From Vicugna vicugna (lineage: Eukaryota), in assembly GCA_013265495.1 (NCBI GenBank), contig MU057700.1, positions 62,001 to 126,000 on the forward strand: a stretch of DNA of 64,000 nucleotides, in the 5' to 3' direction. A program made the position numbers and the translations under genes. Below, piece after piece: positions 2,285-57,699 of the stretch (position 1 is its first letter; each line of letters begins with the position of its first letter). The notes beneath the pieces are model-generated. The model was not told the origin of the DNA, ran no database searches, and saw nothing but the letters and a program-made list of their open reading frames with translations.

Positions 2285-3228
2285 GAGTCTTTCTTTGAAA
2301 AATAATTTAATTTGCTAACAAAATTATTAAATGTTTCACTTAGCAAAGCACACCTAAAAGGAACTAATGATAAAAAGAGAAGCTTAAATTAAGGCTTCAC
2401 AATTTCACATAGTCACAAAGACCAAAACCCAACAGTACTGGTATTATATTTCAATTTTCAAATTTAATGTTGTAAAATCTGAAGTTACCTTAAAGGATTT
2501 TAAATGGGGGAAAAAAAAGATTAGAAGGAAAAAAGCATCAAATTTTTAAAATATTATGGATCTAAGACCTTTAATAGAATTTTTTTAAAGCATGTCTCCC
2601 GAATGTGTTTAGATGAGTATGGTATAAAAGTTATTTCACAAAACTGAAATTACTTCAATATAAATATACAACTGCTGAGGTATGCCACTACAATATAAAT
2701 TGAAATAAGCTCAACATGCAAGAAGCATTTTGAGGCATTACAAAATACTGAAAAGGGATTCTAAAAAAATAAACAACTGATTTCACAAGTTCATGGTGCA
2801 AATTGGTTACACAGCTTCCACTTCTATAAAAACAGCTATTCGTTGTTCCTGGATTCCCCGTGTAAGGTTAGGCTGGAATCAGTAAAGGTTTCCTATAAAA
2901 CCAGCTGTCTTGACTAATACAGTATGTTTCACTGTGCTTCAATACCCACCTGCTTCATTTCTGTGGGACTAGAATACTTCAATATACCTGTGTCCCATGG
3001 TTTCTCTGTCTTTTTTCAGGGCCATTTGATATAATCTTCTGATTAGCATCCAACAAAAAAATGAGATCAACACCAGATGCCCCATATTCAGTTCTGGAAA
3101 TTCTGCACATCTCAGCAGACAAGCACCAGGACGAGCTGGGCCGCCAGTCCTCCACGGCCTTCAGGACCAAGCAGCAGAGACACCTGACAGGACAGGCATC
3201 AAACTCGCTTGGGTATGACTTTTTGTGG
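2285..3228 (-). pseudogene. Decayed, unprocessed HNRNPF paralog terminal exon (inverted duplicate)
   Basis: Reverse complement aligns to the HNRNPF exon. Acceptor ttttcag|ccacaaaaagt, same 51-nt leader, then LLLGPEGRGG (vs [10 protein letters not shown]) and [23 protein letters not shown] (from 3025; stop at 2971-2969). 3'UTR blocks gaagctgtg..tttgcaccatga..ttgtgaaatc and tttgctaagtgaaac follow. Confidence 0.92.
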
Positions 3229-4121
3229 CTGAAAATAAAGCAAAATCTGTAAATTTTTCATTTAATATATATAACAAGAATATGTAATGAACATAATTTT
3301 CTCCATTATATAGATGAGGAACGTAAAGATGAGTCAAATTACATAAAGAGCCTTTAAAATACCAAAAACATTTTAGAGCTGAGATTTAAGCCCAAGTCTC
3401 TGTTTCCAAAACTTATACAAACTCCCCCATCCCACCCACAAAGACTACCTAATTCACTAAAGGACAGAGTGCGCACAATTTAACTGAATCAAAATGGCAC
3501 TTAGAGGACATACTGCGGTAGGCCCTCTGGTGAAAGACCACAGCAGTGACAAAAGATATTTTAAAAATATGAATGGGTATGATTGCTGGAAAATGACAAG
3601 AGTCACCCTCAGTGGACAGGGAATTTTGAGGAATTCAAAGAAGATGGAGTGCCCACAGAGTTGTATCCATAGTCCAAAACCTGCAGGAGATGACAGCTTG
3701 AAAAGATGCAAGAAGCTCCAGCGACAGCTTGAGTTTTGGGGCTCCCTTCTCCTTGTACCCAGAGGGCTGGGAAAGCAGTTGTGGGTCCACTCCCAGGCTG
3801 GCAGAGAGGTAGTTAAGGTGCCCTTGGTGTCTGGCAGCAACCAAGATGCCTTAGGAATCCCATATCATTACTGGGGCACACACACCACGTCCTGTCCTGT
3901 TATCTATAAAGGGTAGAGGTAAACAGAATCAGGCCCACAGGGATTTTCATGCAACATCTGAAGAAAACCAACACCCCAAAGAGCATCACCTCATTGAAAG
4001 GACGGAAGGTAACACTGAAGAAAATTAAGTCAATACAGAAAGCAGGAGATTTTGAAAGATGGAGATTTTCAAAGATGTATGCCTAGTATGTTCACAGCAA
4101 TATGACAGATTGACACCTGTA

Positions 4122-4250
4122 AATATATATATATATTTAATTTATATATATATTTATATATAAATTTATATATATTTATAAATATATATTTATATTTATA
4201 AATTTATTTATATATTTATAAATATATATATCTTTATCATATATATATCT
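4122..4250. repeat. AT-rich low-complexity (TA)n-like tract
   Basis: Nearly pure A/T with tatatattta variants. Confidence 0.9.
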
Positions 4251-4909
4251 TTTATGATAAAGAACAATTAGCCATCTCGGATATTAAAAATAGTGTCAAA
4301 ATCCAAAAAAAAAAATGCTCACAAAATTAAGGAAGTAGCAGAATAGAAGAAATTCGTAGAGTGGAATGGTGAGCTGGAAGATCCACTCAGTGATCTCAAA
4401 TGCAGTGCAAAGGTAAAGAGTAAGTATGATCTTTAGTTTAAAGGGACCAAGCTATAATTTCTAAAAGCAACTACTGAATGTCCTAGAAAGAAAGAGAATA
4501 AATGTGGGGTAATGCTCTAAGAATAGTAAGTAATACTCCAAACTGGAGAAAAATATGAGTCCACAGATTATATGTATCGCCATATGTCTAAAGAAGGAGG
4601 ATATATATAATTCAGATGTTTCAACATACTGGGAATATAAATATTTGTCAAGTTAAGGAGAGGGTGCCTTATAATGTCATGATAAAACCTGGTGATCCAA
4701 TAAAAAAAAAACTCTATAATATTCTTAGTTATAATTAAAGCAAAAACTCTTATCCTTAACCAATAACATAGGTTTACTTATTTGTGGTAGGAGGTATATT
4801 TACACAGAGTATGATTAATTATGGAAGCTGAATTTCATCTTGATCAAACTTCTGCTTTTTTTTTAATATGGCCCTATTCTCTTGGCCATATTTTATAGGC
4901 TCAGAAGTG

Positions 4910-4995
4910 CCCCCCACCCTTTTTAATGGAAGTACTGGGGATTGAAGCCAGGATCTCACACGTGCTAAGCATGAGCTCTACCACTGAGCTATTTC
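4910..4995 (-). mobile_element. tRNA-derived SINE
   Basis: ctggggattgaagccagg...gtgctaagcatgagctctaccactgagcta. Confidence 0.8.
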
Positions 4996-5334
4996 ACCTG
5001 ACAAAACCTTCTAATTTTTAACCCACTGTCAATGGCTTTAGTAATTGTTATGATTAACAGAACCAACAAAATAGTTTTTCTTAATACCTTTGTGGTCATA
5101 AGCAACCACTGGTTTTATCTTTATAACAAATTTTGGTTAAAATAAAGATGAATGAAGAATATATCAGAATTCCTTAAAACACAGGTAGAAAACCAAAATC
5201 CTGGCCATTCTACAAGGGAATCAGAATCACATCAGCAATGATGTTTACAAGAATATAAGACAGCAATGGCTTTTACATCCTAGGGGAATATACTTTCGAT
5301 CCTAAAATTCTCAATTAGAAAAAAAATCAAACTG

Positions 5335-6549: not shown

Positions 6550-8632
6550 GGAGGACTTCAACTCTTAGGCAAGATGGAGTATCAGGGGCCAGATTAACCT
6601 TTCCACCTGAAACAATCAAAAAAATTGACAAAATATAAGGAAAAAATGGTTTCCAAAACAATGGATACCAGGCAACAAAGGAGACAGGAAGCAAGGAGAT
6701 AAGCGCCACAATTGCCCCAGCTCACCACCTGAGAAGTATTTAGACTTCTAGGGAGAAAAAACTGAGGCAGAACCCAGCAGACTCCCTGATTTGAAGAGAG
6801 AGATTTGAGAATCCGGGAAGACCAAGGCAGCTAGCTAGAGTTCATGGAACAGAATAGGGAGAGAAAACCCCAGAGATCTGCAGGGGGCCCCTTTGGCACT
6901 CGGGGGAGTAGGAGTCAGCAAGTATAGGTAGGGAAAGCACCAGAGATCCGAGGAAAGAATCATTCAAAGCATCAAAGGGAACAGTACCCTGTGCTCATTA
7001 AGGGAATAGTGCCTGTTTCAAGCTAGCAGAATGTAAAATTTCATAATTCTTGGCCCACTGGGTAGGGTACTCCGGAAGATCTTCCCTCAGTAGTGGGGAA
7101 TAATTAACCCGAGACAGAGCACTTTTCTGGACCTGCCTAACAAATCCTAAAAAGACAAAGACCAAAAAAGATCCAACTGTTTTCAAGTAATTTAACTATA
7201 TTCCCAAAATAAAGCTCAAGAAGATTTATAGGAATACAAAGTATTCAGCATTCAACAAAGTAAAATTCACAGTACCTAGCATCCAACAAAAGATTACCAA
7301 GCACATAAACGGCAAGAAAACATGATCTTTGGAGAATTATCAGTGAATTGAAACTGACTCAAGAACTGACAAAGATGCCAGAATTAGCAGAAAAGGACAT
7401 ATACACAATTACTATAACTGTATTCCATGTGTTCAGAAAGTTAAAAACAGGCATGAAAGATATAAAAAGACCTGAGCCAAACTTTCAGAAACAAAAACTA
7501 TAATGTCTGAGATAAAAAATAAACTGGATGGAGGGAAAAAAAAAAAACACTGGATGAGATGAACAGATTACATATCACAGAAGAAAAGATTACTGAACTT
7601 GAAGTCAATCAAGCTCATTATGCCAAAAAACAAAAAAAACCAACCCAAATTGAAAAGAAAAAAAAAAATCAGAAACTATGTGATGATTTCAAGAAGACTA
7701 ATACATAGATAACTGAAGGGTGGGGTGGGATGAAAAAACCAGAAAACATATTTGAAGAAATAATGGCCTAAAACTTTCCATAATTAAAAAAAAAACACTA
7801 TAAACTTATAGTTTCAAGAAGCTCAATGAACCCTAAACTAAAGAAACATAAAGAGGGGGGTGGGTATAGCTCAGTAGTAGAGCATGTGCTTAGCATACAC
7901 CAGGTATTGGGTTTAACCCCCAGTATCACCATTAAATAAATAAATAAAACCTACTTCGTCCCCCACAAAAAAAAATTTTTTAAGAAACATAAAGAAAACT
8001 ACACCAAAGAATATCAGAATCAAATAGCTCAAAATAAGTGATTTTTAAAAAATCTTAAGTCAGCCAGAAAAACAGACATGTTAAAGAATATATATACGAC
8101 ATGGAAACAACCTTAGTGTCCATCGATGGAGGAATGAATAAAAAAGTTGTGGTATATTTATAAACATACAATGGGATACTGCTCAACCATAAAAAGAGAA
8201 TGAAATTTTGCCATCTGCAGCAATACAGCTGGACTTGGATGGCATTATGCTAAGTAAAACAAGTCAGAGAAAGAAAAAAACAGCATGATATCACTTATAC
8301 GTGGAATCTAAAAAATCCAAAAAACTAGTAACTATAAAAGAAGCACTACCTTACGCTTACTGGGTGTAAGGTAGGCTCAAGGAGGTTTTGTACAACATAC
8401 GGAATATAGCCAATATTTTGTAATAACTGGAAAAGGAATGTAACCTTTAAAAACTGAATAAAAACTGTAAAAAAAATTTACAAAAAGAACATATATAAAG
8501 ATGACATCAGATTTCTAACTGGAAACAATGCAATAGAGAAGGCTGGGGAATGAAATCTTTTAAGTACTAAAAGAAAAAAAACTGTCATACTCTAATCCCA
8601 GAGATAGCAAAAATATCTTTCAAAAATGAAGG
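6550..8632 (+). mobile_element. Old L1 (L1MD/MC-like) 5'UTR and ORF1 relic, with nested SINE and L1 3' fragment
   Basis: ggcaagatggag 5' start and ORF1-like text (tttgaagaaataatggcctaaaactttcca). Nested SINE about 7855-7981 with TSD aagaaacataaaga; nested L1 3' end about 8100-8480. Confidence 0.7.
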
Positions 8633-8634
8633 CA

Positions 8635-11600
8635 AAGCTTCCAGTTCAGGACAAGATGGAGAAGATACACTTCCTATTCCTCTCCCTAAATACAGCTAAA
8701 CATAATGGTACACAAAGAAACAAAACAAGACTGAAAGGTGGAGAGAAATGGCAGATCAAGAAGGGATCCTGGCCCCAAGAAATGACATGATGTTGGGCTT
8801 CCTGGGTTTTCTTTTTGCTTCTTGTATTTCACACAGGGTGTTAGAGAAGCCAGCAACCTGAAAATGCCAATAGGTGCAAATTTTTAAAAACCTAAGAAAA
8901 TCCTGGTCTTCGAGACAAAGGACGAGAAAAGGGACAGGACAGCCTTGTAAGACAAAACTTTTAGACAATAACCACCATACTCCAGCCAAGCTCCACAGAA
9001 AAAAAGGGTGATACCACCCCTATCCATATCAGCAAAGGCCTAATAGGAAGCCTAGACTTCCCCTTGCCAGCCTGCAAAACATACATCTTACCCTTCCAGC
9101 CAAGCTGCTGTCACTGAAGGTCCAGTGGGGAACCTAACAGCCATCCCAGTCCACTGGAATGAGGCATCTCTCTGATTCCCCACCCCCAGTCAACAGAGGC
9201 TGAGTGGAGAAACTGGACTTCTATTCTACCTGGCAATAATAAGGCAGCACCTCCCTTTCCCTTGCCAGTGTGGTGTCAGAGAAAACCTGCTAAAAATAGG
9301 AGATTTGGGTAACAGCCAGAGTCTCATGAAAATGCTCAAAATGTCCAGGATCAAAAAAAAAAAAACATCGCCCTACCAAAACCCAGGAGAAGAGCCACTT
9401 GAATGAGAAAAGAAAACCAAAAGACATCAACACCAATATTTGGACTATCTGACAAGGAATTTAAAGCAGCCATCACAAAAACGCTTCAAAGAGCGATTAT
9501 GAATATGTCTGAAACACATGAAAAAGTGCAACTCATCAGAGAAACAGAAGATTTAAAGAATCAAGTAGAAATTCTAGAACTGAAAAATACAATTACCAAA
9601 ATAAAAAACTCAAAAGCAGAAAGGAGCCAAAAGAGGAGAAAGGTAGAGCAATTGAATACAGAAAAACAGAAATTACCCAATCTGAATGACAGAAAACAGA
9701 GCAGCAGAAAATGACCGGGGCCTTTGGAAACTGTGGGACTATAACAAAAGATCTAACATTCACATCATAGGGAGTCCAAGAAGGGAAGGAGAAAGAGTGT
9801 GGGCCTAGAAAGTATCCGAAGAAATAACAAATAAAAATATTCCAATTTTGGCAAAACAACCCCAAAGGGTCATATGGGAAAACTATAAAGAATGCTACTC
9901 ACATAAATTTGGCAAGTGAGAGGAAATTTACCAATTCCTCAAAAAGCTACTACTACAGTTCTACCTACATGAACAGCCCTGTAATTATTTTAAAATTGAA
10001 TTTCTACTTTGAAAACTTCTCCTAAAATCTCCAGACCCAGGTGGTTTCACAGGAAAAGTAATACCAAATATTTAGAAAACAATTAAAATTGAGGGGAGGG
10101 TATAGCTCAGTGGTAGAGTGTGTGCTTACCACACACAAGGGCCTGGGTTCAATCCCCAGCACCTCCATCAAAATAAATAAATAAACAAACAAACAAATAA
10201 ATAAATAAAAGATTAAAAATAAACAAACAAACAAAAAAGAATTAAAACCAACTCTAAACAATCTCAGAAAATGGAAGAGGAGGGAACACTGCCCCAACTC
10301 ATTTAATGAGGTCAGGTACACCCTGATACCAAACCCAAAGACATCAAGAAAGAAAACTAGACCAATATCCTTCATAAATATAGATGCTAAGCCCTTCATA
10401 AAATATTAGCAAATAGATTTCAGTAATATAGAAAAAGAATTATACACCATGACCAAATAGAGTATGGATATGCAAGGACGGTTCAAGTTTGAAAATCAAT
10501 GTAATACATCATATCAGCAGGTTAAAGGAATATTATATGATCACATAAATTGACATCGGAAAAGCACTTGACAAAATGCAACATTCCATTCATGCTAAAA
10601 ATGCTCAGCAAGTTAGAAATGGAGGGGAATCACCACAACTTGATAAAGAGCATCTACAAAAAACTACAGCTAACACACTCAGTGGTGAAAAACTGCATGC
10701 TTCTTTCCAAGATTGGAACAAGACAAAGATGTCCACTTCACCACTCTAATTCAACATCATATTATAAATTCAACTCAGCAGAATAAGGCAAGAAAAGGAA
10801 ATAAAAGTATGTATTGAAACAGAAGTACTACCTCCTCTTTGCAGATGACATGATGTGCTACACAGAAAATCCCAAGAGATGTACCAAAAACAAAAAAACA
10901 AAAAACAAAAAACAAAAAACAGAAGGAAAAAAACTCCTAGAACTGTTTGTGGAGGGAGGGACCCTTAAATTAGGAGGCCCACCAAATTGTGGGTTCTTGG
11001 CACCTGCTGTGAAAGAATTCGCACAGCAGAAAGAATTCGCAGAAGGGGAAATGGGAGGAAAGTGCTTAAGTGAGGAAGAGGCACTCAAGCGGGGAGCCAT
11101 CAGCAAAGATGGGTGGTAGAGACAGCTCTGGCCCAGGTTGGGCCACATAGACTTTTATGGGAAGCTTCTGCCATCATGTCCGTCTTCAATGTGTGGTGGA
11201 GTCAATAAGTCCCTGCTCTGAGTTTTTCAGTCCTCTATGGGCTTTTCTGGTGGTTGTCACGGCAACTGTTAACTGTCATGGCACTCATGGGTATGTCACT
11301 GAGCATGTTAACACACACTACAATGAATGTATAATGAGGCTCAAGGTCGACTGGAAGTTAGATCCTCCACCATCTTGGTCTCTATGAGTTTTAACCAGTT
11401 CTTGTTTCTTCTCTGCAGCTGCCTCCTGAGACTTAGACCAGAGTAATTGGTTTCTGTATGAGGAAGGGGCAGGGGTATGATCCTGGGGGCAAGAGCCTTG
11501 GTAACAAAAAGGAAAGTTGCTTTTAATCAGAATGCCTGCAACCTTGTGGACCCAGCATCCCCCCTAAAAAACCACCTCCAAAGATTCTGTTCAGCCACGA

Positions 11601-13480
11601 AAGTTTTAAAGGGAAATGAAGGAATAATCTCAGTTAATCATTGAGATAGGTGGTCAGAGTTCTTGCCATCTCCCAAAGCCTGCAGGCTTGTCCTAATCAA
11701 CTACTTGAGCCTGCTCTTCTGTGACTCAGGGAGGCCTGAGAGACTTCAGCTTTTCTATAAACAAGAGACAGGGGTTGTGGGGGGTGGGGGACGGGACGCC
11801 ACAGGTCCTGCTAATAAGTTAAGCACAGTCATAGACTACATGATCAACATACAGAAATCAATTGTATTTTTATGTACTAGCAATAAAACATGTGGAAATA
11901 TAAATTTGAAATACCATTTATGATAGCTCAAAAAATTAAAATTACTTACATATCTCACATATCTAATAAAAAGTATGTAGGACTTGGATGCTAAAAACTA
12001 CAAAATGCTTATGAAAGAAGTCCAAGAAGCTCTAAGTAAATGAATAGACATACTGTGTTCACATATTGGAAGATTCAACATAGTGAAGGCAAATGTCAAT
12101 TCTCTCCCAAAATGATACTAGGATTAATACAATTCCTATCAAAATCTCAGCAGTATTTTGATTTTGCCTTTTTTAGGGGGTGGGGGGATTAGGTTTCTTT
12201 CTTTCTTTATTTACTTTTAGAAGAGGTACTGGGGATCGAACCCAGGACCTTGTGCATGCTAAGCATGCTGTCTACCACTGAGCTATACCTACCCCCAAGC
12301 AGTATTTTTTTAATAAATATAGACAAACTGATTCTAAAATTTACATGGAAAGTCAAAGGAACTAGGATAGCCAAACAATTTTGAAAAAGGTGAATAATGT
12401 TGAACTCAGACTGCACTATTTTGGAAATTAGCATAAAGTTACAATGAAGACAATGTAGTAATGATGAAAAGATACACATATAAATTAAGGGGACAGAGTA
12501 ACTAGTCCAGGTCCAGACCCACACAAATTTTTTTTCTGATTTTTAAAAAATTTTTTACAATACAGCAAAGGCAATTCAGCAGAGAAAGTAGTCTTTTCAA
12601 CAAATGGTGATGGAACAATTGTATATCCATATGCAGAAAAAAAAGAGAAAGAGAGAATATTGATTTAAACCTCACACCTCATTCAAAAGCAAAAAAAAAA
12701 ATAAACCTCAAAATAAATCTATACATAAAATATAAAAGTGTAAAACTTTTAAAAGAAAATACAGGTGAAAAATCTTTAAGACTTAGTGTTATGCAAAGAG
12801 TTCTTAGATATAACACCAAGGATCTGTATTTTCAAAGCATAAAGAACTATTAAAACTCAATAGGAAGGAAAGAACCCAATTTTTTTAAATGGGCAAAACA
12901 CTTGATCAGATAAATACCTTAAAAGGGTTATGGGGATGATAAGTAAGCTCATGAAAAAATAATCAACATTATGAGCCATTAGTGAAATGAAAATTAAAAC
13001 CATGACAAAATATGGCCATATACCCCTACAGAATGGCTAAAATACTTTTAAATGTTTTAAAAGATGTTAAGAAGATGTAAAGCAATCAGAACTCTCATAT
13101 ATTGCTAATGAGAATGCAAAATGGTACGGACACTTCTGGAAAAGTTTGGTAATTTCTTATAAAGTTAAATATTTACTCATTATATAATCTAGCAATCCCC
13201 TTGGGGCTAGGGAAATAAACTGGTACAACTGTCTTAGAAAGTGTCCTTATGTGATGAAGTTGAATGTGGGCAAACTCTATGACCCAGAAATTCCATCATA
13301 GGTACAGAAGCCAAAAGTAAGTCTGGCACGTGTGTCCCAGAAGACATGTCCTGATTCAAAGCATCACTGTTTACAATACGCCAAACTAGAAACAGCCTGT
13401 AAGTCCTTTAACAGAACAGTGGAGAAATAAATTGTTGCCTGCTTATCAAATGGAATACTTAGCAGCAAAAAGTACTACAG
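8635..13480 (+). mobile_element. Second old L1: 5'UTR, ORF1 and fragmented ORF2/3' end
   Basis: caggacaagatggag start; ORF1 relic (LSDKEFKAAI...EILELKNTITKIKNS); RT motif LFADDMMCYTENPK at about 10835-10875. Interrupted by SINEs (about 10091-10235 +, 12175-12296 -) and LTRs. Confidence 0.8.
10944..11810 (-). mobile_element. LTR insertion(s) nested in L1 ORF2
   Basis: Interrupts the L1 motif aaaactcctagaac^taataag. LTR-like composition, probably two nested LTR pieces. Confidence 0.6.
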
Positions 13481-15535: not shown

Positions 15536-16354
15536 TTAATGATGGGTACACAGATTCTAGGTTGAGCTGTATTCTTTACACCTTCGAGATATGTTTTACA
15601 ATATATCTATGTCATCTTTCTTAATTTTAAAGTGGGAGAAAAATAACTAAACTAAAAAATCTTGATAATAAAGAAAAAAATACGAGTGTGGGACAAAACC
15701 CTGGATCTACTCCCACAACCTGCTGAATGCAGGCTCATTCCAAGATGATTTGCCAAAAAGGAACCAGTGTAAAATGTAGTCATGAATATGACTAGAAAAA
15801 GAGAAAGAAAAGCAAATGGCTGACTACACAAATGCTGCAGCAAAGTGTGACCAAGAGGCAAAGGAACTCAATTAGGAAATATTTCAGACTGATGGATTTA
15901 AATTTAGTGAAGCTGATGAAGGAAGAACACAGAGAAGAGATGCAGATACAAAAGGAAGAACTAAAACTCCTTGGATTAGAAAAATTCAAAGGTTTGAACT
16001 ATTTCCTTAGGAAACAGGAAATGGGTAGGAGAAAAGCTTTTGAGTAATAAAGCCTCGTGCAAGCTTGGGAGTCTTTAAATATGTGACTTATTGCCTTAAG
16101 AAATAAAACAATGTTTTCCTACCACGGCTGCACCGTTTAAGGTGTCCTCGCAGGCAGGCGCAGACCTCTCAAACCTCCAGGTCCTAGGATGCGGATCCGT
16201 CTAGGGCTCCCCCAACATCCCTCCCCTAAAAAAGGGATTTTCCTCAAACTCGTCCCCTTCCGGCTCCTCCGGTCTCCGTCTCCCGGGGTGGGCTGGAGAC
16301 TCCTCCACTGAAGCCAAGGATACTCTTTGCTGCCTCTGCAAAGAACGACTCCGC

Positions 16355-17280
16355 CCCCATCCCAAATCGCAGACCCGCTGTCCCTACCCCCAGAGTCCCC
16401 AGTTGGTCAAGGGGTGCTGGTCTCGAACACGCTTCCCGTCCCACCCCTCAGCTCGGGTTTCGAATCTCCACCCTCCCGCTCTTATACACACCCAGCACCT
16501 CGGTCGTCCCTCTGAGCACCTAGAGGACGGAACGCGGAGGCCTAGCTGAGGCATTTTAGGCTAATTTATCATCACCATGGAAACCCCTAGGCGGGGCTCC
16601 TAGGGGGCGGAGCCAGGGGCGAGGCTAGCCGTAATCTTTAATTCCCGCTCGTCGTGCGCACGTAGCGCACGGCGCACGCAGCGCACGGAAGTGGCGTGCC
16701 CTGCCACCCTCGGCCCTGCGCCCATGCACCCGGCAACAAAAGCCCTAGGAGCCTGCGTCCCCGCCCCGCTTCCGGGTTCTCTCCAAACCCCACCTTCTTC
16801 TCCAGGAAGATGGGCGCAATCCTACTTGCAAAATCGAGCGGGAAGGACGCAAAGACTACGGCGGGGCGGGGCCCCAGTGGCGGGTGCCTGGGGGCGGGGC
16901 CGCAAGGGCCCCATGTGTCGCTCCTGGAGCGGAGCAGGGGATTAGTCGGCCAGGCTCGGGGCGGGGCCAGGGCTTCGGAGGGCGGGGTGCGGCGGGGGCG
17001 TGGGTGAGTGTGGTTGTGTGGGCGAAATTCTGGAGGCGGATCGTGGAGCAAGCGGCGGGAGGTGGGGGAGGTCTTATCAGGGGAGGCAGCGGGTTCGCAG
17101 AGCGCTCCTTAGCCACTGAAGCTACTGACTCGCAGTCTCCAAACAATGAGCCCAAAGAGCACTTGATTGAAGACCAGCGTGACAGAAGAAAATGAGAGTC
17201 ATTGCCTGACAAGGAGAAAGAGGGAGCCGAGAACCCCCGAGACCAATAAAGGCGGCTCCGAGGGCAGAACTTTAGGAACG
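16355..17280 (-). promoter_or_regulatory. CpG-island promoter, inverted paralog of the HNRNPF distal promoter/exon A
   Basis: Reverse complement matches 37390-38310, e.g. gactctcattttcttctgtcacgctggtc, gtctttgcgtccttcc, gtttccatggtga, taggtgctcagagggacgac, ccaactggggact. CpG-rich with GC boxes, CGGAAGTG and GCGCA repeats. Confidence 0.9.
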
Positions 17281-17746
17281 GGCGCAGGCTGCGCTCTCAG
17301 CTCTTGGGTCGCTACTCCGCACCGTCAGGTGACCTCACCTGGCTACTTCAAGGGGTTCCTTTGGCGGGCAGGGCTTTCGCCTCAGGCCCGATCCTCAGAG
17401 ACAAAGTTCTAGGTTGTCAACTCTTAAGACCTTCACTTCTGTAAGAAACGCGCCATTTCAGTGTCATTTGAGTTCTTGCTACATCCGGGCCAACTGTTTT
17501 TGCTGTAAACAAGACAGACTGAACTTTCCATTCTTTGGGAGAAGTTGTTTGTTAAGCACACATACACAGTCGGAATTAGCAGTATCGGGGACCAAGAGTT
17601 GTAATATTCTGCAGCAAAAGCTGCTAAGCAAATCTTTTGCTTTCTGTCTTATGATCAGATTCAGCGCTAAGAAGAAAAGGAATCCTGAGAGCCACCTTTG
17701 GTGACCTGAATGTCCTGATCAACATAAGCAGATCATGGAATTTTGA

Positions 17747-18160
17747 TGTCAGGTGAGGTCTCTCTCTGAGGAGATGGAAGGTGGGGATAATTAGACTAAT
17801 CATGCCTGAACAGTAAAAAACACAATGCAACCACAAAAAAGATGACCAAACATCCTCTCCCTAGCTAACATGAGTGTTGCTTCTCCAATGACAACTCTAG
17901 CCCTACTCCATTCCTCCAGCTTTCCAGATAAGTGTATCACTGAATTGCCCTTACTTTCTGACAGCACCAGAACAGATCCCTGTCTCTTTGGGCCCTCCCC
18001 AAACTAACACAAGCCCAAATACTATAATAAACCCTCTGATTTACACCCCCTTCGTGAGATACCCCAGGGTTCCCCAGAGTGTGAGGTCTCCCTCACTACA
18101 GCATACAACCCTTCATTGTTGGACCATGACTGTGTTTTGGTAGTCTTTGGTGGGCATCAC
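17747..18160 (+). mobile_element. Old solo LTR
   Basis: TG...CA ends with LTR-like U3 (ccagataag, tactataa) and U5 (ggtagtctttgg) text. Confidence 0.5.
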
Positions 18161-23965: not shown

Positions 23966-23967
23966 AC

Positions 23968-30124: not shown

Positions 30125-30128
30125 GAAA

Positions 30129-31730: not shown

Positions 31731-31740
31731 TCTGGTTTGT

Positions 31741-38211: not shown

Positions 38212-38289
38212 GTGAGGGGTGGGACGGGCAGCGTGTCCCGAGTCCCGCACCCGCTAACCAACTGGGGACTGCGGCCCCTGGGGGTGAGG

Positions 38290-38645: not shown

Positions 38646-38839
38646 GGGCCCGAAACGAGGAAGGGAAGGAGAGCCTCACGCGGACTTCAGGGGGAGCAGA
38701 ACCCGAGCGCCCCTGCCAGGCGTAGGGTGAGGGCAACGAGCGGCGGTCGGAGAAGTGGCTCATTTAAAAATGAAAGCAGTACTTTCACGTGGCTGGAGGC
38801 GTCCGACAGTTGCACAAGACTGGTTTGAACTGACTCCTC

Positions 38840-38952
38840 CCCCCTCCCACGTTCCCGCCGAACCTCCGCTTTCCGTCTTTGCGGCCTTTTTTCCCCTCTC
38901 CGTGCTGCGTGTGTTCCCTGAGCCTGTCTGCGTTTGACTCCCGCTCTCAGAG
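38840..38952 (+). other. HNRNPF: Candidate HNRNPF first exon B (non-coding)
   Basis: Pyrimidine-rich leader downstream of TATA-like CATTTAAAAA (38761) and an E-box. Weak donor AG|GTATCG at 38953. Confidence 0.35.
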
Positions 38953-48196: not shown

Positions 48197-48227
<31 letters not shown>

Positions 48228-48419
48228 TAATTTTACTGTGGCTCCTTCCACATAAGTGGTGCCCGTCCACCCCTCCCCTCCGCCCGTACTCTGGACTTTT
48301 CTCCACCCTGGCACCTCTCTTGAGAGCTCACGCAGACCCGTCTTCCTCGTTGCTTTCCTTTCCTCCTCCTCCCACTTCCTGCCTTGGCCGACCGCGCGGG
48401 CCGCGGGCCGCACCTGCAG

Positions 48420-48585
48420 GACGCGTTTCCATTGGTGACATCTTGGCGGGCCCGTCGGTGGCACTTCCTCCTTTACACCCCGTGATCCACGTCCGGCTCG
48501 CCGCCCTCCTAGTCACGCGGCCTCTGCCTCCGGGACGCAGCCCCGCGCGCCGGCCTTCCGGACTCCAGGCCTCGGACCCGTAGTG
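48420..48585 (+). other. HNRNPF: Candidate HNRNPF non-coding exon in the proximal CpG island
   Basis: Donor GTG|GTGAGC at 48586. Possible acceptor cacctgcag| at 48418-48419 after a pyrimidine-rich stretch. The 5' boundary is uncertain and could be a TSS. Confidence 0.45.
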
Positions 48586-48706
48586 GTGAGCCGCCGCGGG
48601 CGGACGACCCCCGTCTGCCCACCCAGCCCCCCGCGGGTCCCGGGAACTTTTCCCCGCCCCCCCCACAGCCGCTCCTACCCCAGGAACTCTTTCTTCCCCC
48701 TTCCCT

Positions 48707-48941
48707 NNNNNNNNNNNNNNNNNNNNNNNNNNNNNNNNNNNNNNNNNNNNNNNNNNNNNNNNNNNNNNNNNNNNNNNNNNNNNNNNNNNNNNNNNNNNNN
48801 NNNNNNNNNNNNNNNNNNNNNNNNNNNNNNNNNNNNNNNNNNNNNNNNNNNNNNNNNNNNNNNNNNNNNNNNNNNNNNNNNNNNNNNNNNNNNNNNNNNN
48901 NNNNNNNNNNNNNNNNNNNNNNNNNNNNNNNNNNNNNNNNN
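48707..48941. other. Assembly gap (235 N)
   Basis: Run of N inside a GC-rich island. Confidence 1.
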
Positions 48942-49797
48942 CGAGGCCCTGGAAGCCTCTTCCCCTCCCCCACCCGTAGCTCGCCCCGCCCCGGAAGCTC
49001 CCGCTGACCCCGCCCAGGCCCGGGGATGGGGCTCCCTGGCGTCGGGCCTTCCTGTAGGGCTAGCTGGGCGGGCTCGAGGCTTTCGTATCCCCGGGTGGAG
49101 GCCGAGCGAGCCGTTTCACCTTGCCAGGCGGCCCAGCCAGAAGCTTGGCGTCCGGGCGCGATACCGAGCTTCCCGCCGAATCGCTCAGACTCGCCCCTGG
49201 CGGCCCGCGGCCGCGAGCTTCAAACCGCACTTTCAGCTCTCGAACGAGGGGTTTGCCCACAGCCAGTTGAGTTTCAATTTCAGGTTAATAACAAAAGGAG
49301 ATGCACCTGGCTTTTGCCCGGAATCCTCTGCGTTTTTAAGCGTCGAGTGGAATTGGGGGTCCTTTCGCTGTAAACCACGCTTGCTTGATGAAAGTAGAAA
49401 ACGGTCCTGCTTTCAGCGGTAAGTCTCAGGGCAAGAGTCAACCGCGTAATCCTGAGGCGGCGTCTCCCGCGGACTATGATTTAAGAGTAGAACTTTCTGA
49501 GTAAGACACCCAGGACAATCCGGCTTGTGTGTGCTGCCGGTTGTAGGTTACAGTTCGTTTACAAGTGAGGACGGAAATGCTTTTCAGGCCTCCCTGGAAC
49601 ACAAATAAAGGAGGGTGAAGTCAGGTCCCGCCGAGTTCCCGTCCCTGAACAAGAAGGTGGGGGTGCAGTTTAGACCGCCCTGTGTACTCCGTTGATAAAC
49701 CTAGTCAGTCGCGCGCTGGAGGCGCACCCTGTTTATCTTGATTGGTCTACCTCGATCTGAACTAAATCCTGTCTAACCAGTATAGTAGAGTGAGGAA

Positions 49798-49940
49798 CAG
49801 CGCGTTCTGGAGAGCCTCCCGGGAGTCCAGGAAACTTGTTAAAAATGCAGAATCTGGGCCCCAGCCCAGATCTATTGTTTTAAAATCTGCATTTTAATAA
49901 GATTCTTGGGTGGTCCGTTTGTGCGCTTCCATTATAGTCC
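49798..49940. mobile_element. MER5-type hAT MITE
   Basis: aaacttgttaaaaatgcagaatctgggccccagcccaga...aatctgcattttaataagattc. Confidence 0.7.
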
Positions 49941-51001
49941 AGTCGTTGGGGTGAGTTGTGCAAAATTAAAATCTTTGGTTGCTTCCCTTTCTGTACGTAC
50001 AGTTGAATCAATCTCCAGGTGCAGGATCCAAGAGCAGTATTTTGTAACACTCCTCCGGCGATTACAGGGTGCAGGCTTGGAGAGGGTGGGGGACCAGTGT
50101 TCTCCCACAGCGTTTCAAATGGGTGTGCGCCACGGTTCAGTCTTGTGGAAATCGGCTTCGGTGCTTCAGGCCGCCCTGGGTGTGCATGTCCTAATAATTA
50201 AGATCGCTAGTAAGCATGGCAGATAACTAAGACAACGGGCTCAGAGAAATTAACTTGAGTTTCTCAATTCTGTGTTTCTAAAACTAAGAATGTGCCTTAT
50301 TTATCAGAGTATCCCCTGGGCTTAAGCACATAACCTAGTCTTTTGGGGACGTCTTTGTCCTGTGGCTGTATGTTATGGTAGTGATTTTCCTGTTAAAGCA
50401 TTATTTCTTTCTCTCCTCCCCATTCCTCCTCAGTTAATTAAAAGATCAGTGTTAGAAATACAAGTCACAAGAAATGAAGTTGTCAGATAAAATTAGGAAA
50501 GAAAGGTCTTTTGAGTATCTCCACCCAATCCTGTAGGGATACTTGTGAATTGTAAATTCTGTTAGATCAGTTTCTAGCAAATAACCTTTCCCTGGAGCCC
50601 ATTCCAGTGAAAATCTGGCCCCATCTCCCCCGTGTCCCGTGCTGGTCTGCGCGGCTTTCCCCGCCCTTGGCTTCTCGGGACCCCTCCGACCTTGCCCAGG
50701 CCCCACCCTGACGGTGCCCCTCCCGCCCTGGATATCGAAATACCTAAATTTCCTTAGCGTGTACGGAACTCCGGTACTGAGAAAACCTCTCAGGGCAAGT
50801 GGGAGTGGCTGTTAACTCTCTGCATTACCCTATGAAAAGGGTAAACCTTTTAGAAACGGGGGGTGTGGCAGGTGTGTACTTTAATTTGAGGCAGCTGCGT
50901 GGTTCCGAGAAGCCCATCCCAGCCGGGGGACTGCTGCCTCTATAGTCACTCTGGGAATGCTGGGGCACTGAGGCAAAATTAACGTTCTCTCTCTTTTTTA
51001 G

Positions 51002-51061
51002 GATAATCCGTTGCCTACTTGGAGTGTCTCTGACTGTGGGCATCTCCCACTGTTCTCTAAG
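51002..51061 (+). other. HNRNPF: HNRNPF 60-nt non-coding 5'UTR exon
   Basis: Strong acceptor ttctctctcttttttag| (AG 51000-51001) and donor AAG|GTGAGC (GT 51062). No ATG inside. Confidence 0.7.
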
Positions 51062-53400: not shown

Positions 53401-54833
53401 CATCTGGGATGTTTTTCGGATTCATCTGAAGTAAGATTCTGCTTTTATCTGTGTGATAACCATTGTGCCCGGATTTCTTGAAAAGGCAACTCTCTTATCA
53501 CTGATTTTAATGACTACATCTGTTGGCTTGATGGGCAGTGACAGTTTGATGAAACATGTAATTTCCGTATACTTACATGTGCCCATTTTGAGCATTGATC
53601 ACCAAGAATATATTTTTGGCCCCATCAATATTTTTATTGTCTCAGTTCTGCATATATTGCTGTCTGCTGGCTCAACTCCTACTCTTCCCAGTATAGCCCT
53701 TTGACATGAATTTGACTTTAACTCTTTTTCAGTGGTACCAGGTGCTACTTGCACTTAGTGACCCCCTGTCGGGAAGGGCACTGCTCACTCATGCCTCTTG
53801 TACTTGGAGGTGGTCATTCCCTTCTAGTCTCAACAAAACAGCAATCTGTGTGTTATGTTTTTGAGACTGAGAAGCATATAATCTGATTTCTGTATTTGCA
53901 GCACACATAACTAATCTGATGGGCTTATCTGCTTGTTTGTATATGTCTTCAGTTTGACCTCACACTTAACTCATGTTTTGTTTGAGTTAACAATTTAGGA
54001 ACAAAATGATGCTTCCTTAGACTCTGAAAGTCACTGCTTCCTTGTGTCCTTGCAGCATTGTTGCTGATGTGAAGACTGATTCTGGTTCATCCCAGTATCA
54101 AAGAAAATCTTATTCTGTATTCTGATTTAAAATAGCTTCTATTGATCACTTACTTTTGCTTGTATAGTATCTTGCCACAAACAAGCATATAGGTTAAATA
54201 TAAGGATTTTAGTTTAAGAATCACTCAGGAACTGTCATAAATGAATTAACACATTTCATGACAGATAATCTGGAATAAATAAAACAAGAAAATGCTCTGC
54301 CTTATACTTAGGTTCTTCTGTGTTCAAAGTACTGAGTCACACCTATCCTTTACTTTAGCGATGCAAGAAAACAGCTCATCTATTTTCCTCCAGTTCTGAG
54401 TTCTTTTAGTATTTCTGAATGTTACCTCAACTCATTCTTCTGTCTACCCTTCTAGAACTCATAGTAATTGATAATTATGATTTGTAAATTTTAGTTTATT
54501 GCCTGACTTCCAGATCTCTATTCTGCTCTTCAAATTTTACTCTCCCTTGTTTTGCTTTTTAAAGAAAAACAACCCTTAATTTGTTATTTTTGATCTATCT
54601 GTGAGTAATATGAACATTTTTGGGGAGACCTAGGATTAAATCTGAGCTCAAACGTATTTGTATTTCTTAACATCTTTATTTAATTTCATTCATCTGTAAA
54701 AGGGGGGAAGCTATTTATTGCATATTCTTGTTGCACATATTAAATGAAAAATTATGTAAAGTAGTTTTTGCTTTCTTTGCAGCCACAAAAAGTTGCACCC
54801 AAGCTTGTTTGACGTCTGCCCTGTCAAGTGTCC

Positions 54834-56078
54834 ATGATGTTGGGCCCCGAGGGAGGTGAAGGTTTTGTGGTCAAGCTCCGTGGCCTGCCCTGGTCCTGCT
54901 CTGTTGAGGATGTGCAGAATTTCCTCTCCACCTGCACAATTCATGATGGGGCCGCAGGCGTTCATTTTATCTACACTAGAGAGGGCAGGCAGAGTGGTGA
55001 GGCTTTTGTTGAACTTGAATCAGAAGAAGATGTAAAAATGGCCCTTAAAAAAGACAGGGAAAGCATGGGACACCGGTACATTGAGGTGTTCAAGTCCCAC
55101 AGAACCGAGATGGATTGGGTGTTGAAGCACAGTGGTCCAAACAGTGCCGACACCGCCAATGATGGTTTTGTGCGGCTTCGAGGACTCCCATTTGGATGCA
55201 CCAAGGAAGAAATCGTTCAGTTCTTCTCAGGGTTGGAAATCGTGCCAAACGGGATCACATTACCTGTGGACCCTGAGGGCAAGATTACAGGGGAAGCCTT
55301 TGTGCAGTTTGCCTCCCAGGAGTTAGCTGAGAAGGCTCTAGGGAAGCACAAGGAGAGAATAGGGCACAGGTATATCGAGGTGTTCAAGAGCAGTCAGGAA
55401 GAAGTCAGGTCATACTCGGATCCCCCTCTGAAGTTCATGTCGGTGCAGCGACCGGGGCCCTATGACCGCCCCGGCACAGCCAGGAGGTATATCGGCATTG
55501 TCAAACAAGCAGGCCTGGAGAGGATGAGGTCCGGAGCCTACAGTGCAGGCTATGGGGGCTACGAGGAGTACAGCGGCCTTAGCGATGGCTATGGCTTCAC
55601 CACCGACCTGTTTGGAAGAGACCTCAGCTACTGTCTCTCTGGGATGTACGACCACAGGTATGGAGATGGCGAGTTCACTGTCCAGAGCACCACCGGGCAC
55701 TGCGTCCACATGAGGGGGCTGCCCTACAAGGCCACGGAGAACGACATTTACAACTTCTTCTCTCCGCTCAACCCGGTGAGAGTCCATATTGAGATTGGCC
55801 CTGATGGAAGAGTGACGGGCGAAGCTGATGTTGAGTTTGCCACTCATGAAGAAGCTGTGGCGGCCATGTCCAAAGACAGGGCCAACATGCAGCACAGATA
55901 CATAGAACTTTTCTTGAATTCCACAACGGGGGCCAGCAACGGGGCTTATAGCAGCCAGATGATGCAAGGCATGGGGGTGTCAACCCAGTCCACTTACAGT
56001 GGCCTTGAGAGCCAATCCGTGAGTGGCTGTTACGGGGCTGGCTACGGTGGCCAGAACAGCATGGGAGGGTATGACTAG
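54834..56078 (+). CDS. HNRNPF: Heterogeneous nuclear ribonucleoprotein F (three qRRM domains, GYR-rich linker), intronless CDS, 414 aa
   Basis: Translation [23 protein letters not shown]...[38 protein letters not shown]...GQNSMGGYD is recognisably hnRNP F rather than H1/H2. The ORF track starts at GTG 54828; the first ATG is 54834 and TAG ends at 56078. Confidence 0.98.
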
Positions 56079-56690
56079 TTTTGTAGTAGCATTTGAGTTA
56101 TTTCAATCAAATTTTCACAGGCAGCCAACAAGCAGTGAAAAGCAGTTACTATTCTAGAGGAAGCTGTGGGACCCGTTTTGCACCATGAGTTTGTGAAATC
56201 TGGATTAAAAAAATTACCTCTTCAGTGTTTTCTCATGCAAACTTTCTTCTAGCATGTGATATTGAGTAAACTAAAACTATTTTCAGCTTTTCTCAATTAA
56301 TATTTTGGTAGTGTACTTCTGGAGTGATGTTATCTGAGTTATAAAGTAGTTTTAAGTATGTTAAATGTGGATCTTTTACACCATCGTGAACACATTGGGG
56401 AGGTGTGCTTTTCTCTCTCTCTCTTTTTTTTAAAACTCAAGGTGCTAGATCCCTAATTCAAAGAGGAACATTTCTCATGTTTGTTCATTCTAGTTTATTT
56501 TCATTTAAAATCTTTTAGGTTAAGTTTAAGCTTTTAAAAAGTTAGTTTTGAAAATTGAGACACATTACTAATACTGTAGGAATTGGTGAGGCCTTGACTT
56601 AAAACTTTCTTTGTACTGTGATTTCCTTTCGGGTGTATTTTGCTAAGTGAAACTTGTTAAATTTTTTTGTTAACTAAATTTTTTTCTTAA

Positions 56691-56696
56691 AATAAA
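56691..56696 (+). terminator. HNRNPF: HNRNPF polyadenylation signal AATAAA
   Basis: Canonical hexamer at the end of a U-rich 3'UTR. Confidence 0.75.
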
Positions 56697-57699
56697 AAGA
56701 CTTTTTCACAATGACTGGCACAGACTATCTACTCACCAAATATAGCAGAATGATTGGGTGGTTCATTTTAATACTATTGTATTTCAGTATGAATTTTAAA
56801 ATTTAGCACTATAATTTCCCTTGTATTAAAACAAGGCTAAATTAAAAATCATATTTAAAAATGTTTAATATGTGAGTGGAAATGGTGACTAGAAATACAT
56901 ACCAGGAACTGTGAGAATAGAATGAGCGTATAGTCCCAGCTTCCTGTGACTAGCATGTCCTATTCATCAGCCATTTGTAATGCCCTGCTGTTCCCTTCCT
57001 TTATGCTGGAGATGCATCTATTCATAGCTAGAGATCTTCGTTTTGGGGTGCTTTATACCCTGAATCATCAGCCACAATTTGTTTCAGTTTTTCTATATAA
57101 AATATGTTGATTTGAATGCTTTTTTTCATACTTTTACCCTGGGTTAGCACTTAACAGTTACTGCAGGATACACATATTCTCAAGCTTGAGACCTGTTCCC
57201 AAATTGTTAACTAGAAATTTCTAGCAGTGGAAAGCAAGCTCCACATTTCAGGCAGCTCTGCGCATAGCACATTATCACTTACACAAATATTAAATAAAAA
57301 TGTCAAGACTTTAAAATGTGAGTGAAGTTTATTAAAAAGAATTTTGCTTGATAGCTGTTTACCCAGCTTTATTTTCCCACCAGCTTTATTTTCCCACGTA
57401 TCTTTAATAACCATACAGTGTTGTCTTCAATAACTATGCAGTGCAGCCCAGTTATCCCAATTTCATCATTTTAAGGATCTTTATCTGGTGTCTATCTGTA
57501 GGTAGACTAGTCTTTCTTTGGCCTTATTGGGCTTTGCCCCACTCCACCATTCTTCCCACCAGTATTCTGCAGACTCACAGGGCCAGAGATGGGGCTGCAG
57601 CATCACCCAGGAATGCCAGAGGCAGAGAAGACTGAGTAGCATGAAGGTGGATGGGTGGGGCAGAGACTGCATCTTCCCATGTTCACAGGGTCTCTGCTT

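Follow-up and report, generated by a model that had tools for sequence, protein, structure and literature searches.

A decayed, apparently ancient inverted duplicate of the HNRNPF locus and its retained CpG island in Vicugna vicugna

HNRNPF is a textbook retrogene, having gained alternative isoforms along with a promoter and 5' exons. Orphan CpG islands with promoter activity were reportedly described by Illingworth et al. 2010, and the island examined here resembles them in having no intact protein-coding gene; it differs in that its origin is known, as a paralogue of the HNRNPF distal promoter, while its own promoter activity is putative. A second point of comparison is provided by unprocessed pseudogenes from segmental duplication, in which a DNA-level copy carries over promoter, introns and exons and is then disabled. 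The copy of HNRNPF considered here was disabled in the manner of such duplicated pseudogenes, through lost start codons, frameshifts, a stop and an internal deletion. It departs from the usual case in being an inverted, head-to-head copy of a parent that is itself a retrogene, and in having a promoter that kept full CpG-island character over what may be ~100 Myr while the exon decayed. In its passages on HNRNPF, Carelli et al. (2016, PMC4772013) present the gene as a eutherian-specific retrogene with alternative promoters. The working gene described below corresponds to that retrogene (single coding exon, gained 5' exons, CpG-island promoter), and the second copy reproduces its layout of exon 1, intron and coding exon. 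The main-text passages of the same paper on HNRNPF or segmental duplication make no mention of a DNA-level duplicate of the locus.

The window analysed is a stretch of 64,000 nucleotides, in which a preliminary description had proposed inverted, head-to-head and collinear homology blocks and suggested aligning the stretch with its own reverse complement. In a minus-strand self-blastn (E<=1e-10), the promoter and exon blocks are indeed the top 2 of 20 inverted matches: 16355-17257 against 38316-37409 (69.2% over 974 columns, E 5e-112, 402 bits) and 2930-3400 against 55134-54625 (66.9% over 531 columns, E 1e-43, 175 bits). The other 18 matches, at no more than 107 bits, are short dispersed repeats. 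A more sensitive blast (26 rows) bears out this arrangement, extending the promoter block to 16355-17278 against 38316-37388 and splitting the exon block into 3096-3317 against 54924-54690 and 2919-3058 against 55145-55004, with further pieces at 2779-2904 (56200-56075), 2429-2506 (56580-56502) and 2299-2413 (56685-56573). Overall, exon homology runs from 2299-3400 on the minus strand to 54625-56685 on the plus strand. As controls, all 12 off-diagonal matches on the same strand score 104 bits or less, and when the right half was shuffled in 200-bp windows (n=20), the left half reached best scores of 30-43 bits against it in 20/20 shuffles. The two inverted blocks are collinear, and each is unique within the 2.03-Gb genome, in which the left promoter block is found at only 3 places. 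Promoter and exon lie ~13.0 kb apart on the left arm and ~16.3 kb apart on the right, with 20.1 kb between the promoters, in agreement with the ~13, 16.5 and 20 kb first estimated. Given 70-76% identity, an assembly chimera is an unlikely origin of the left-type sequence.

The right arm is the working HNRNPF gene, with exons 1 and 2 deduced from junctions in processed pseudogenes:
37388-38316, plus strand: distal part of the HNRNPF CpG-island promoter, with a left counterpart (blast and alignment)
37763-37814, plus strand: HNRNPF exon 1, minimum extent (processed pseudogene junction), with donor AAG/GTGGGG from 37815
48200-50100, plus strand: second CpG island, in the HNRNPF intron (GC up to 0.74, CpG observed/expected 0.7-1.05)
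51001-51061, plus strand: HNRNPF exon 2, 61 nt (junctions in two processed pseudogenes)
54781-56740, plus strand: HNRNPF last exon (ORF, Pfam and cluster; exon start from retrocopies)

The last exon comprises 53 nt of 5'UTR, an intact and uninterrupted CDS in one exon (54834-56078, 414 aa) and a 3'UTR reaching the AATAAA region. The protein is identified as HNRNPF by this ORF, by its qRRM domains and RNPHF zinc finger (Pfam RRM_1 96.9 bits, zf-RNPHF 85 bits) and by the presence of its exact sequence in a cluster named HNRNPF (133 members, >=90% identity), and a single-exon CDS following non-coding 5' exons is the layout of a retrogene. The processed pseudogene C3565:950439-953618 joins 37763-37814 to 51000-51061 and then to 54781 onward; exon 2 has acceptor TTTTTTAG and donor GTGAGC, and an alternative longer first exon spans 50911-51061. 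The distal promoter block (GC 0.652, 71 CpG, observed/expected 0.72) belongs to an island of ~37400-39800 in all, and the second, intronic island contains an assembly gap at 48707-48941. Blast against the left arm gave no significant match to this second island, and exon 2 has no detectable left counterpart.

Homology on the left arm takes in the promoter and exon 1, the 3' end of the last intron, where the AG acceptor is kept, and the 3'UTR as far as the poly(A) region:
16355-17278, minus strand: retained CpG-island promoter, homologous to 37388-38316
16793-16843, minus strand: left homologue of exon 1, placed by alignment (40/51 identical)
5227-5327, minus strand: weak collinear intron block, 67% over 101 nt against 53973-54072 (E 7e-7, more sensitive blast), single-copy in the genome search
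3231-3400, minus strand: homologue of the last-intron 3' end (alignment), with polypyrimidine tract and AG acceptor TTTATTTTCAG/CCACAAAAAGT
2905-3230, minus strand: 5'UTR relic and first ~104 codons (alignment), ending where ~929 bp of CDS is deleted
2285-2904, minus strand: relic 3'UTR (blast), running directly from the HNRNPF stop-codon position to near an ATTAAA

The terminal exon on the left had been taken to mirror that on the right. Homology is present, but the mirror is incomplete, as ~929 bp of CDS (about aa 105-414, right 55146-56074) is deleted. Both relic ATGs are now CTG (3177-3172), four frame-breaking deletions of 8, 1, 11 and 31 nt interrupt the relic CDS, and a TAG stop lies at 2971-2969. 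Identity to the right arm is 74.3% over 152 ungapped sites in the intron flank (K2P 0.32), 76% in the 5'UTR and CDS (K2P 0.29) and 66.9% over 577 ungapped sites in the 3'UTR (K2P 0.44), and the ATTAAA near the end of the latter sits opposite the poly(A) region of the right arm. In base composition the relic exon (2299-3317) has drifted to background, with GC 0.34 and a CpG observed/expected of 0.24, compared with 0.30 for the background of the window. With intron and promoter homology and a disabled CDS, the left arm is an unprocessed pseudogene, dead and internally deleted, and no second gene. The proposal of a whole-gene duplication thus stands for its span, from promoter to poly(A) region, while the left copy is neither complete nor alive. 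That this copy could be a functional paralogue encoding a short protein with the first qRRM only is an idea with scarcely any chance of being right: its sole support is a residual similarity of 25 aa, and it is refuted by the lesions in the relic, with the ATGs changed to CTG, the four deletions and the TAG falling within the first 90 codons, and no ATG-started ORF of at least 100 aa on the relic strand in 2285-3230.

The shared intron also bears on how the copy arose. The last ~190 nt of the intron, polypyrimidine tract and AG included, is common to both arms, and promoter and exon 1 follow 13 kb upstream, supporting a DNA-level copy rather than a processed one, as had been argued. A better match of the left exon to HNRNPH without the intronic flank would have spoken against this; in the genome search, leaving self aside, the left exon is closest to HNRNPF on its own contig, the only locus that spans intron flank and CDS start continuously, while the C6509 locus matches a separate 135-nt piece that includes ~44 nt upstream of the CDS start. 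Other H/F loci match the relic CDS about as closely as HNRNPF (76-86% over 82-130 nt), which might suggest a processed pseudogene or an independent HNRNPF or HNRNPH retro-insertion with coincidental promoter similarity. Such an origin is nonetheless highly improbable, and is refuted by the shared intron flank, which is no dispersed repeat. The ~190 nt with the acceptor is common only to the neighbouring HNRNPF, the exon 1 and promoter homologue lies in collinear inverted order, and the promoter block is confined to the three places noted above. Moreover, true retrocopies look different. The processed HNRNPF pseudogenes C6509:4045824-4049135 and C3565 are, like the relic, decayed HNRNPF copies, but they are spliced (exon 1 or 2 runs straight into the last exon, a junction absent from the relic), promoterless, 89-93% identical to the gene and much younger, whereas the unspliced relic retains homology to intron as well as promoter, at 67-76% identity.

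The preliminary view that high divergence makes the event old agrees with the K2P distances of 0.29-0.44 and with the branching of the relic. In the ML tree, the relic falls outside HNRNPF and its two retrocopies (SH-aLRT/UFBoot 98.6/98), with a terminal branch of 0.221 beside an F stem of 0.091 and an H stem of 0.109; the retrocopy branches are 0.046 and 0.068, the relic branch being about 3-5 times as long. Three F and three H sequences of this genome show fixed differences at 37 nucleotide sites, and the relic sides with F at 20 of them and with H at 14, with a different base at the remaining 3; where it departs from F, it takes the H base in 14/17 cases. At the protein level, it is F-like at positions 5, 15, 26, 29, 43, 83, 89, 90 and 100 and H-like at A24, S41 and T77, where 6/6 placental HNRNPF sequences compared have V/I24, A/T41 and S77. 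These three H-like residues appear ancestral and kept in the relic, although they could be chance reversions (rough estimate, p ~0.05-0.08). Among the best 120 matches, 27 rows are named F or F-like, and every one of them is from a placental mammal, which is consistent with the eutherian-specific retrogene described in the HNRNPF passages of PMC4772013. Together with that published age class, the internal evidence points to a duplication ~100 Myr old, well before camelids, a date that leans on an assumed neutral rate and on the three ancestral-looking residues. The rate assumed is 2.2e-9 per site per year. Metagenome contigs scanned by pattern gave 0 matches and 1 chance match. A young duplication, specific to camelids or cetartiodactyls, whose dead copy evolved unusually fast is improbable. 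The clock rate is assumed and the evidence comes from the locus in this genome, which leaves such a reading some room, but the relic branch of 0.22 far exceeds those of the retrocopies, the relic splits before them and before the F-specific residues at 24, 41 and 77 that are common to six placental orders or families, and its departures from F go predominantly to H rather than to random bases.

The arms are separated by a spacer that had been called filled with transposable elements:
17279-37387, no strand: inter-promoter spacer of 20.1 kb, with dispersed repeats
32976-33047: tRNA-derived SINE in the spacer (Rfam)
~19680-20193: high-copy element of ~520 bp in the spacer

Qualitatively, dispersed repeats are there: sequence that recurs within the 166 kb compared makes up at least 14% of the spacer, and there are 49,821 first-look candidates genome-wide, but no transposable-element protein domain was found in 140 ORFs of at least 70 aa. 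The further observation that the introns carry different elements holds for tRNA-derived SINEs, with 4 Rfam tRNA matches in the left intron and 0 in the right.

CpG islands are defined by a length >200 bp, GC of at least 0.5 and CpG observed/expected of at least 0.6, and 16355-17278 is such an island, with GC 0.634 and 70 CpG in 924 bp (observed/expected 0.75), on a par with the right block. Six consecutive 200-bp windows across 16200-17399 have GC of at least 0.565 and CpG observed/expected of 0.57-0.98. Identity to the right promoter is 76.0% over 855 ungapped sites (K2P 0.29), and perfect runs of at least 15 nt number 6, against 0.6 in shuffles, and are clustered, the longest being 29 nt. 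The exon 1 donor is kept (GAAG/GTGGGGTT, GT at 16792-16791), while the CCAAT box is lost (CTAAT); that GT and AG were kept by chance over such divergence is not unlikely. In 15800-17800, 0.21-0.29 of sampled 31-mers are held by 13 RNA or RNA? runs from four studies (4 runs, from one study, are on record as RNA, and 10 of 14 'RNA' runs are only guessed to be so), and 0.76-0.82 by runs of unstated kind. These 31-mers cannot stem from the right copy, because the longest perfect left-right run is 29 nt. An ORF-based search found no proteins from left-island transcripts. Based on CpG retention and these words, the left island probably still fires, and it would be unmethylated in the germ line.

It is less likely, though not negligibly so, that the left promoter is as dead as its exon: an orphan CpG island on which no transcript or function depends and whose CpGs owe their persistence to residual factor binding, to biased gene conversion with the right island or to chance. 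Sequence conservation alone is no proof of constraint on the left copy, because the promoter (76%) is no better matched between the arms than the dead CDS (76%), and the lost CCAAT box and a downstream KRAB exon with a stop and no zinc-finger exon in 34 kb fit this unlikely alternative too. Methylation would be expected to strip an island of its CpGs in a matter of tens of Myr, yet the left island kept 0.75 over the same time in which the relic exon fell to 0.24, and RNA-type runs hold 21-29% of its sampled words; recent gene conversion would be expected to leave long near-identical tracts, and there are none.

An inverted duplication of the young HNRNPF locus, with the right copy kept, the left coding part dead and the left island still live, is put forward as the likely history. 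A single inverted segmental duplication would have copied the whole young retrogene locus (CpG-island promoter, exon 1, long intron and single coding exon with its 3'UTR) and left the copies head to head, early in HNRNPF history at ~100 Myr, near or before the placental radiation. The right copy stayed a working gene, while the left lost its coding function through its ATGs, frame-breaking deletions, stop and CDS loss. The left promoter escaped such decay, with CpG island and exon-1 donor kept, and the last-exon acceptor persists too. If unmethylated in the germ line and still firing, this promoter would give a non-coding transcript, either with exon 1' spliced to the relic exon or reaching a KRAB exon 44 kb downstream.

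That KRAB-A exon (contig 34341-34466, Pfam KRAB 73 bits) lies on the same strand as the left island. Human ZNF487, with KRAB and 3 C2H2 fingers, is recorded at 10q11.21 and as testis-enriched (PMC9611863), and a table in PMC3894567 has it as a neighbour of HNRNPF. A KRAB-A exon near HNRNPF fits this relation, but the exon here is closest to ZNF33A/B among named matches (77-79%), carries a TAG stop in this genome and has no C2H2 finger in contig positions 1-146000. A tentative possibility, on balance doubtful, is that the left island and exon 1' are the working promoter and first exon of a KRAB gene, the putative ZNF487 orthologue, across placentals, and that the dead exon is a ~100-Myr fossil of HNRNPF from before the placental radiation, when the gene had its promoter, exon 1 and the long intron but may still have lacked exon 2 and the second CpG island.

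Otherwise, this is a fairly ordinary ancient duplicated pseudogene of no evident consequence for HNRNPF function. Its value lies in the early state that it freezes, as the HNRNPF retrogene was gaining its promoter: a distal CpG-island promoter, exon 1, a long intron and an acceptor 53 nt before the ATG were already in place at duplication, and H-like ancestral states in the relic would date later HNRNPF changes. The decayed exon beside a preserved CpG island illustrates neatly, from nature, how a promoter can outlive its gene. The left island may also explain the source of the neighbouring KRAB gene's promoter, and if this is true, a KZFP gene would be driven by the duplicated, testis-biased distal promoter of the HNRNPF retrogene.

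A real and ancient DNA-level duplication has left an inverted copy of the HNRNPF retrogene locus in the left arm of the window, and the working gene occupies the right arm. The window covers positions 62001-126000 of contig C677 in a 2.03-Gb assembly and is interrupted by a single N run (48707-48941). Minus-strand self-blastn of the window returned 20 matches at E<=1e-10, two of which score far higher than all others:

16355-17257 with 38316-37409, inverted: promoter block, 69.2% identity over 974 columns, E 5e-112, 402 bits
2930-3400 with 55134-54625, inverted: exon block, 66.9% identity over 531 columns, E 1e-43, 175 bits

The preliminary description had proposed an inverted self-match at both blocks, and both are present at the stated coordinates and far beyond chance, as the best scores in 20 local-composition-preserving shuffles of the right half were 30-43 bits. 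The remaining 18 inverted matches (at most 107 bits) are copies of a ~100-nt tRNA-like element (Rfam), i.e., tRNA-derived SINEs, and the same-strand control yielded 12 matches, all at or below 104 bits. Under scoring tuned to ~70% identity (26 rows), the promoter block lengthens to 16355-17278 with 38316-37388. The exon block separates into five pieces in collinear order, and a weak additional match emerges in the intron (5227-5327 with 54072-53973). Genome-wide, the left promoter block is found in three places: itself, the right block, and a fragment at contig positions 694328-695270. A better match of the left exon to HNRNPH1/H2 mRNA, lacking the intron flank, had been named as a finding that would speak against the duplication; in the genome search its best non-self match is the adjoining HNRNPF, which is also the only match continuous from the intron flank into the CDS. 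A processed HNRNPF pseudogene on contig C6509 matches a separate short piece at the start of the relic CDS, including ~44 nt upstream. An extra collinear block (contig 61402-61573 with window 62128-62290) was set aside as a dispersed repeat with 1141 first-look candidates and lies outside the duplication. An inverted, unique-looking pair (contig 22906-23096 and window-frame 77440-77627, 79.6% over 191 nt) was also seen far beyond the duplicated gene, at unmatched distances.

In the right arm, the ORF at 54834-56078(+) encodes 414 aa with RRM_1 and zf-RNPHF domains (Pfam), and this exact sequence falls in a cluster of 133 members, of which those that carry a name are HNRNPF from many placental mammals. 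The exon map was read from two processed HNRNPF pseudogenes in the same genome (retrocopies whose identity to the last exon is 89% and 93%), which serve as natural cDNA copies:

C6509:4045824-4049135: processed HNRNPF pseudogene
C3565:950439-953618: processed HNRNPF pseudogene
at least 37763-37814, +: HNRNPF exon 1, then AAG/GTGGGG
50911-51061, +: alternative longer first exon, documented by one retrocopy
51001-51061, +: HNRNPF exon 2, from retrocopy junctions
54781, +: start of HNRNPF last exon, 53 nt before the ATG

A further retrocopy, of the HNRNPH type, lies at C3565:101987-102291. Exon 1 falls within the duplicated block, in agreement with its earlier labeling as "promoter/exon A," and the right CpG island spans 2.4 kb (37400-39800). 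A second strong CpG island (48200-50100, GC up to 0.74), which contains the 235-N assembly gap, lies in the HNRNPF intron, and a smaller CpG-rich patch (50600-50900) directly precedes the alternative first exon. HNRNPF is described, in the excerpted text of PMC4772013, as a eutherian-specific retrogene with broad and testis-specific isoforms from alternative promoters, and the second island and the patch probably mark the alternative promoter of that study. Since the two retrocopies begin in different first exons, they record both HNRNPF promoters. Blast against the left arm gave no significant counterpart for either exon 2 or the second island. A 61-nt exon at ~70% identity would escape detection, so this result fits a later gain in the right arm as well as a loss from the left.

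The coding part of the left arm is dead. In the relic of the last exon both ATGs are CTG, the coding part carries deletions of 8, 1, 11, and 31 nt and a TAG stop at 2971-2969, and tblastn recovers only 25 residues. Past the equivalent of codon ~104, the alignment resumes only at the base immediately following the HNRNPF stop codon (2904 with 56075), leaving ~929 bp of CDS absent, and the 3'UTR is alignable as far as the poly(A) region, where homology stops. On the upstream side, homology to the right arm covers the final ~190 nt of the intron with the polypyrimidine tract and AG retained, giving the acceptor junction TTTATTTTCAG/CCACAAAAAGT with the exon starting at 3230. An exon-1 homologue at 16843-16793(-) is identical at 40 of 51 positions and keeps its donor GT. 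A processed pseudogene is ruled out by the shared intron flank with its acceptor and by the promoter and exon-1 homology upstream, as the preliminary description had argued. The homology of promoter, exon 1, intron flank, and 3'UTR shows that the copy was made at the DNA level and originally reached from the promoter of the gene to its poly(A) site.

Distances between the arms are large, with K2P values of 0.29 for the promoter, 0.32 for the intron flank, 0.29 for 5'UTR plus CDS, and 0.44 for the 3'UTR. In a maximum-likelihood tree of the first ~104 codons from this genome (relic, HNRNPF, its two retrocopies, H1-like, H2-like, and one H-retrocopy), the relic falls outside HNRNPF and its retrocopies (98.6/98), on the branch toward the H genes. 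Its terminal branch is 0.221, the F and H stems are 0.091 and 0.109, and the two HNRNPF retrocopies have branches of only 0.046 and 0.068. The three F and three H sequences show fixed differences at 37 nucleotide sites; there the relic matches F at 20 and H at 14 and carries a different base at the remaining 3. Random decay would mostly yield other bases, so many of the 14 are retained ancestral states. F and H differ at 24 of the amino-acid positions compared. The relic resembles F at 5, 15, 26, 29, 43, 83, 89, 90, and 100 and H at A24, S41, and T77, where placental HNRNPF has V/I, A/T, and S in all six sequences (whale, gibbon, lemur, cattle, fruit bat, and rhinoceros). These residues fit a split of the relic before the common ancestor of those six sequences; three chance reversions to the H residues would also produce them, with a roughly estimated p of about 0.05-0.08. 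The average mammalian neutral rate is 2.2e-9 per site per year, and at this assumed rate 0.22 substitutions per site correspond to about 100 Myr (roughly 70-150 Myr at 1.5-3e-9). The eutherian-specific origin of HNRNPF (PMC4772013, excerpted text) sets an upper bound. In line with that origin, all 27 rows named F or F-like among the best 120 of 2971 protein matches are placental mammals, and the non-mammalian rows in that set are all named H. Metagenome pattern scans for other-mammal DNA with the most conserved promoter motif gave no match in one and a single chance 21-mer match in another. Taken together, distances, tree, residues, and the age class of HNRNPF point to a duplication that long predates camelids and took place when HNRNPF was still a young gene, so that the great age suggested for the event holds up on evidence from this genome and the published age class.

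The left promoter block has fared differently from its exon. The relic exon (2299-3317) has a GC of 0.34 and a CpG o/e of 0.24, the background level of the window (0.30), whereas the left block (GC 0.634, 70 CpG, o/e 0.75) is indistinguishable from the right one (GC 0.652, 71 CpG, o/e 0.72). An island methylated in the germ line would long since have lost its CpGs, and their retention suggests that the left island has remained unmethylated and factor-bound. Perfect-match runs between the blocks are clustered, with six of at least 15 nt vs 0.6 in column shuffles, and fall on GC boxes, the region of exon 1, and a 29-nt element that forms the longest run. When sequencing runs were searched with 15800-17800, 13 runs from four studies, labeled RNA or "RNA?", contained 0.21-0.29 of the sampled 31-mers; of these runs, four belong to a single study and are recorded as RNA. 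The corresponding share was 0.20 in a fourteenth run and 0.76-0.82 in six runs of unstated kind. The matched 31-mers are left-specific because no left-right perfect run reaches 31 nt, and they suggest that a few hundred bases of the left island may be transcribed. A protein search with the left-island ORF 16641-17108(-) found none among 414 candidates. The best-supported mechanism is a CpG-island promoter that would have survived its dead exon and would drive a putative non-coding transcript into the relic exon or toward a KRAB gene farther left. We lean modestly toward the left promoter being live.

The KRAB gene is represented by a single exon:

contig 34341-34466, -: KRAB-A exon, Pfam KRAB 73 bits, canonical AG and GT borders, in-frame TAG

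It lies on the same strand as the left island, 44 kb downstream of it and 27.5 kb beyond the left edge of the window. With its stop translated as X, it gave eight matches among nine candidates, the best named being ZNF33A/B (77-79%) and none of the eight named ZNF487. No C2H2 fingers or linkers were found in contig 1-146000 by regular expression, for which reason the gene looks like a pseudogene, and Pfam found no C2H2 in 150 minus-strand ORFs of at least 55 aa from contig 1-40000 (drawn from a list of 268, those of contig 40001-79500 being left out). A scan of contig 1-146000 for the FXYD motif of the expected downstream neighbor gave nothing convincing. We take human ZNF487 to lie head to head with HNRNPF. 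A SNP table of human 10q11.21 lists ZNF487 next after HNRNPF (PMC3894567), and ZNF487 is described in excerpted text as a testis-enriched KRAB gene with three C2H2 fingers (PMC9611863). A MESD (Mesd chaperone) retrocopy at contig 39280-39901(-) is divided between two frames (Pfam Mesd, E 3e-44 and 1e-6) and probably represents a processed pseudogene.

The spacer between the promoters had been called TE-filled. This stands only qualitatively: within the 166 kb examined, other copies exist for at least 14% of the spacer (left intron 27%, right intron 5%), and it drew 49,821 first-look candidates genome-wide. Pfam found no family and no TE domain in 140 of the 176 window ORFs of at least 70 aa (36 in the promoter blocks, HNRNPF exon, and relic were left out). 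Five elements that score as tRNA in Rfam belong to the ~100-nt dispersed family:

4927-4998, 7860-7931, 10096-10167, and 12221-12292: tRNA-scoring SINEs, left intron
32976-33047: tRNA-scoring SINE, spacer

With four in the left intron vs none in the right, the arms do differ in their intronic elements as proposed. By self-similarity the right intron is almost repeat-free. Directly downstream of the relic, in contig 52000-64284 (window 1-2284 and the 10 kb to its left), 75% of the sequence is matched by one or more further copies within the 166 kb examined, suggesting a large repeat, for example a LINE. The third, partial copy of the HNRNPF CpG island (contig 694328-695270, reverse orientation, 570 kb to the right) pairs with 37775-38973. 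Over its first 816 bp it matches 38973-38158 at 100.0% identity, but over the following 126 bp it matches 37900-37775 at only 86.5%; its flanks are abrupt and AT-rich, and there is no clean splice junction. This mosaic of identity suggests either that gap filling or assembly has laid an artefact over an older fragment copy or that a conversion took place very recently.

A search of the literature, as distinct from genome annotations, found no description of this HNRNPF locus duplicate, and the excerpted text of PMC4772013 describes none. HNRNPFP1, on human chromosome 1, is unrelated. An existing annotation may already list the duplicate, whether as a pseudogene or within the 5' region of ZNF487. 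Ultimately, the coding part of the duplicate is dead and its putative promoter looks alive, and the locus is of modest interest as a new member of a kind of system that is already known.
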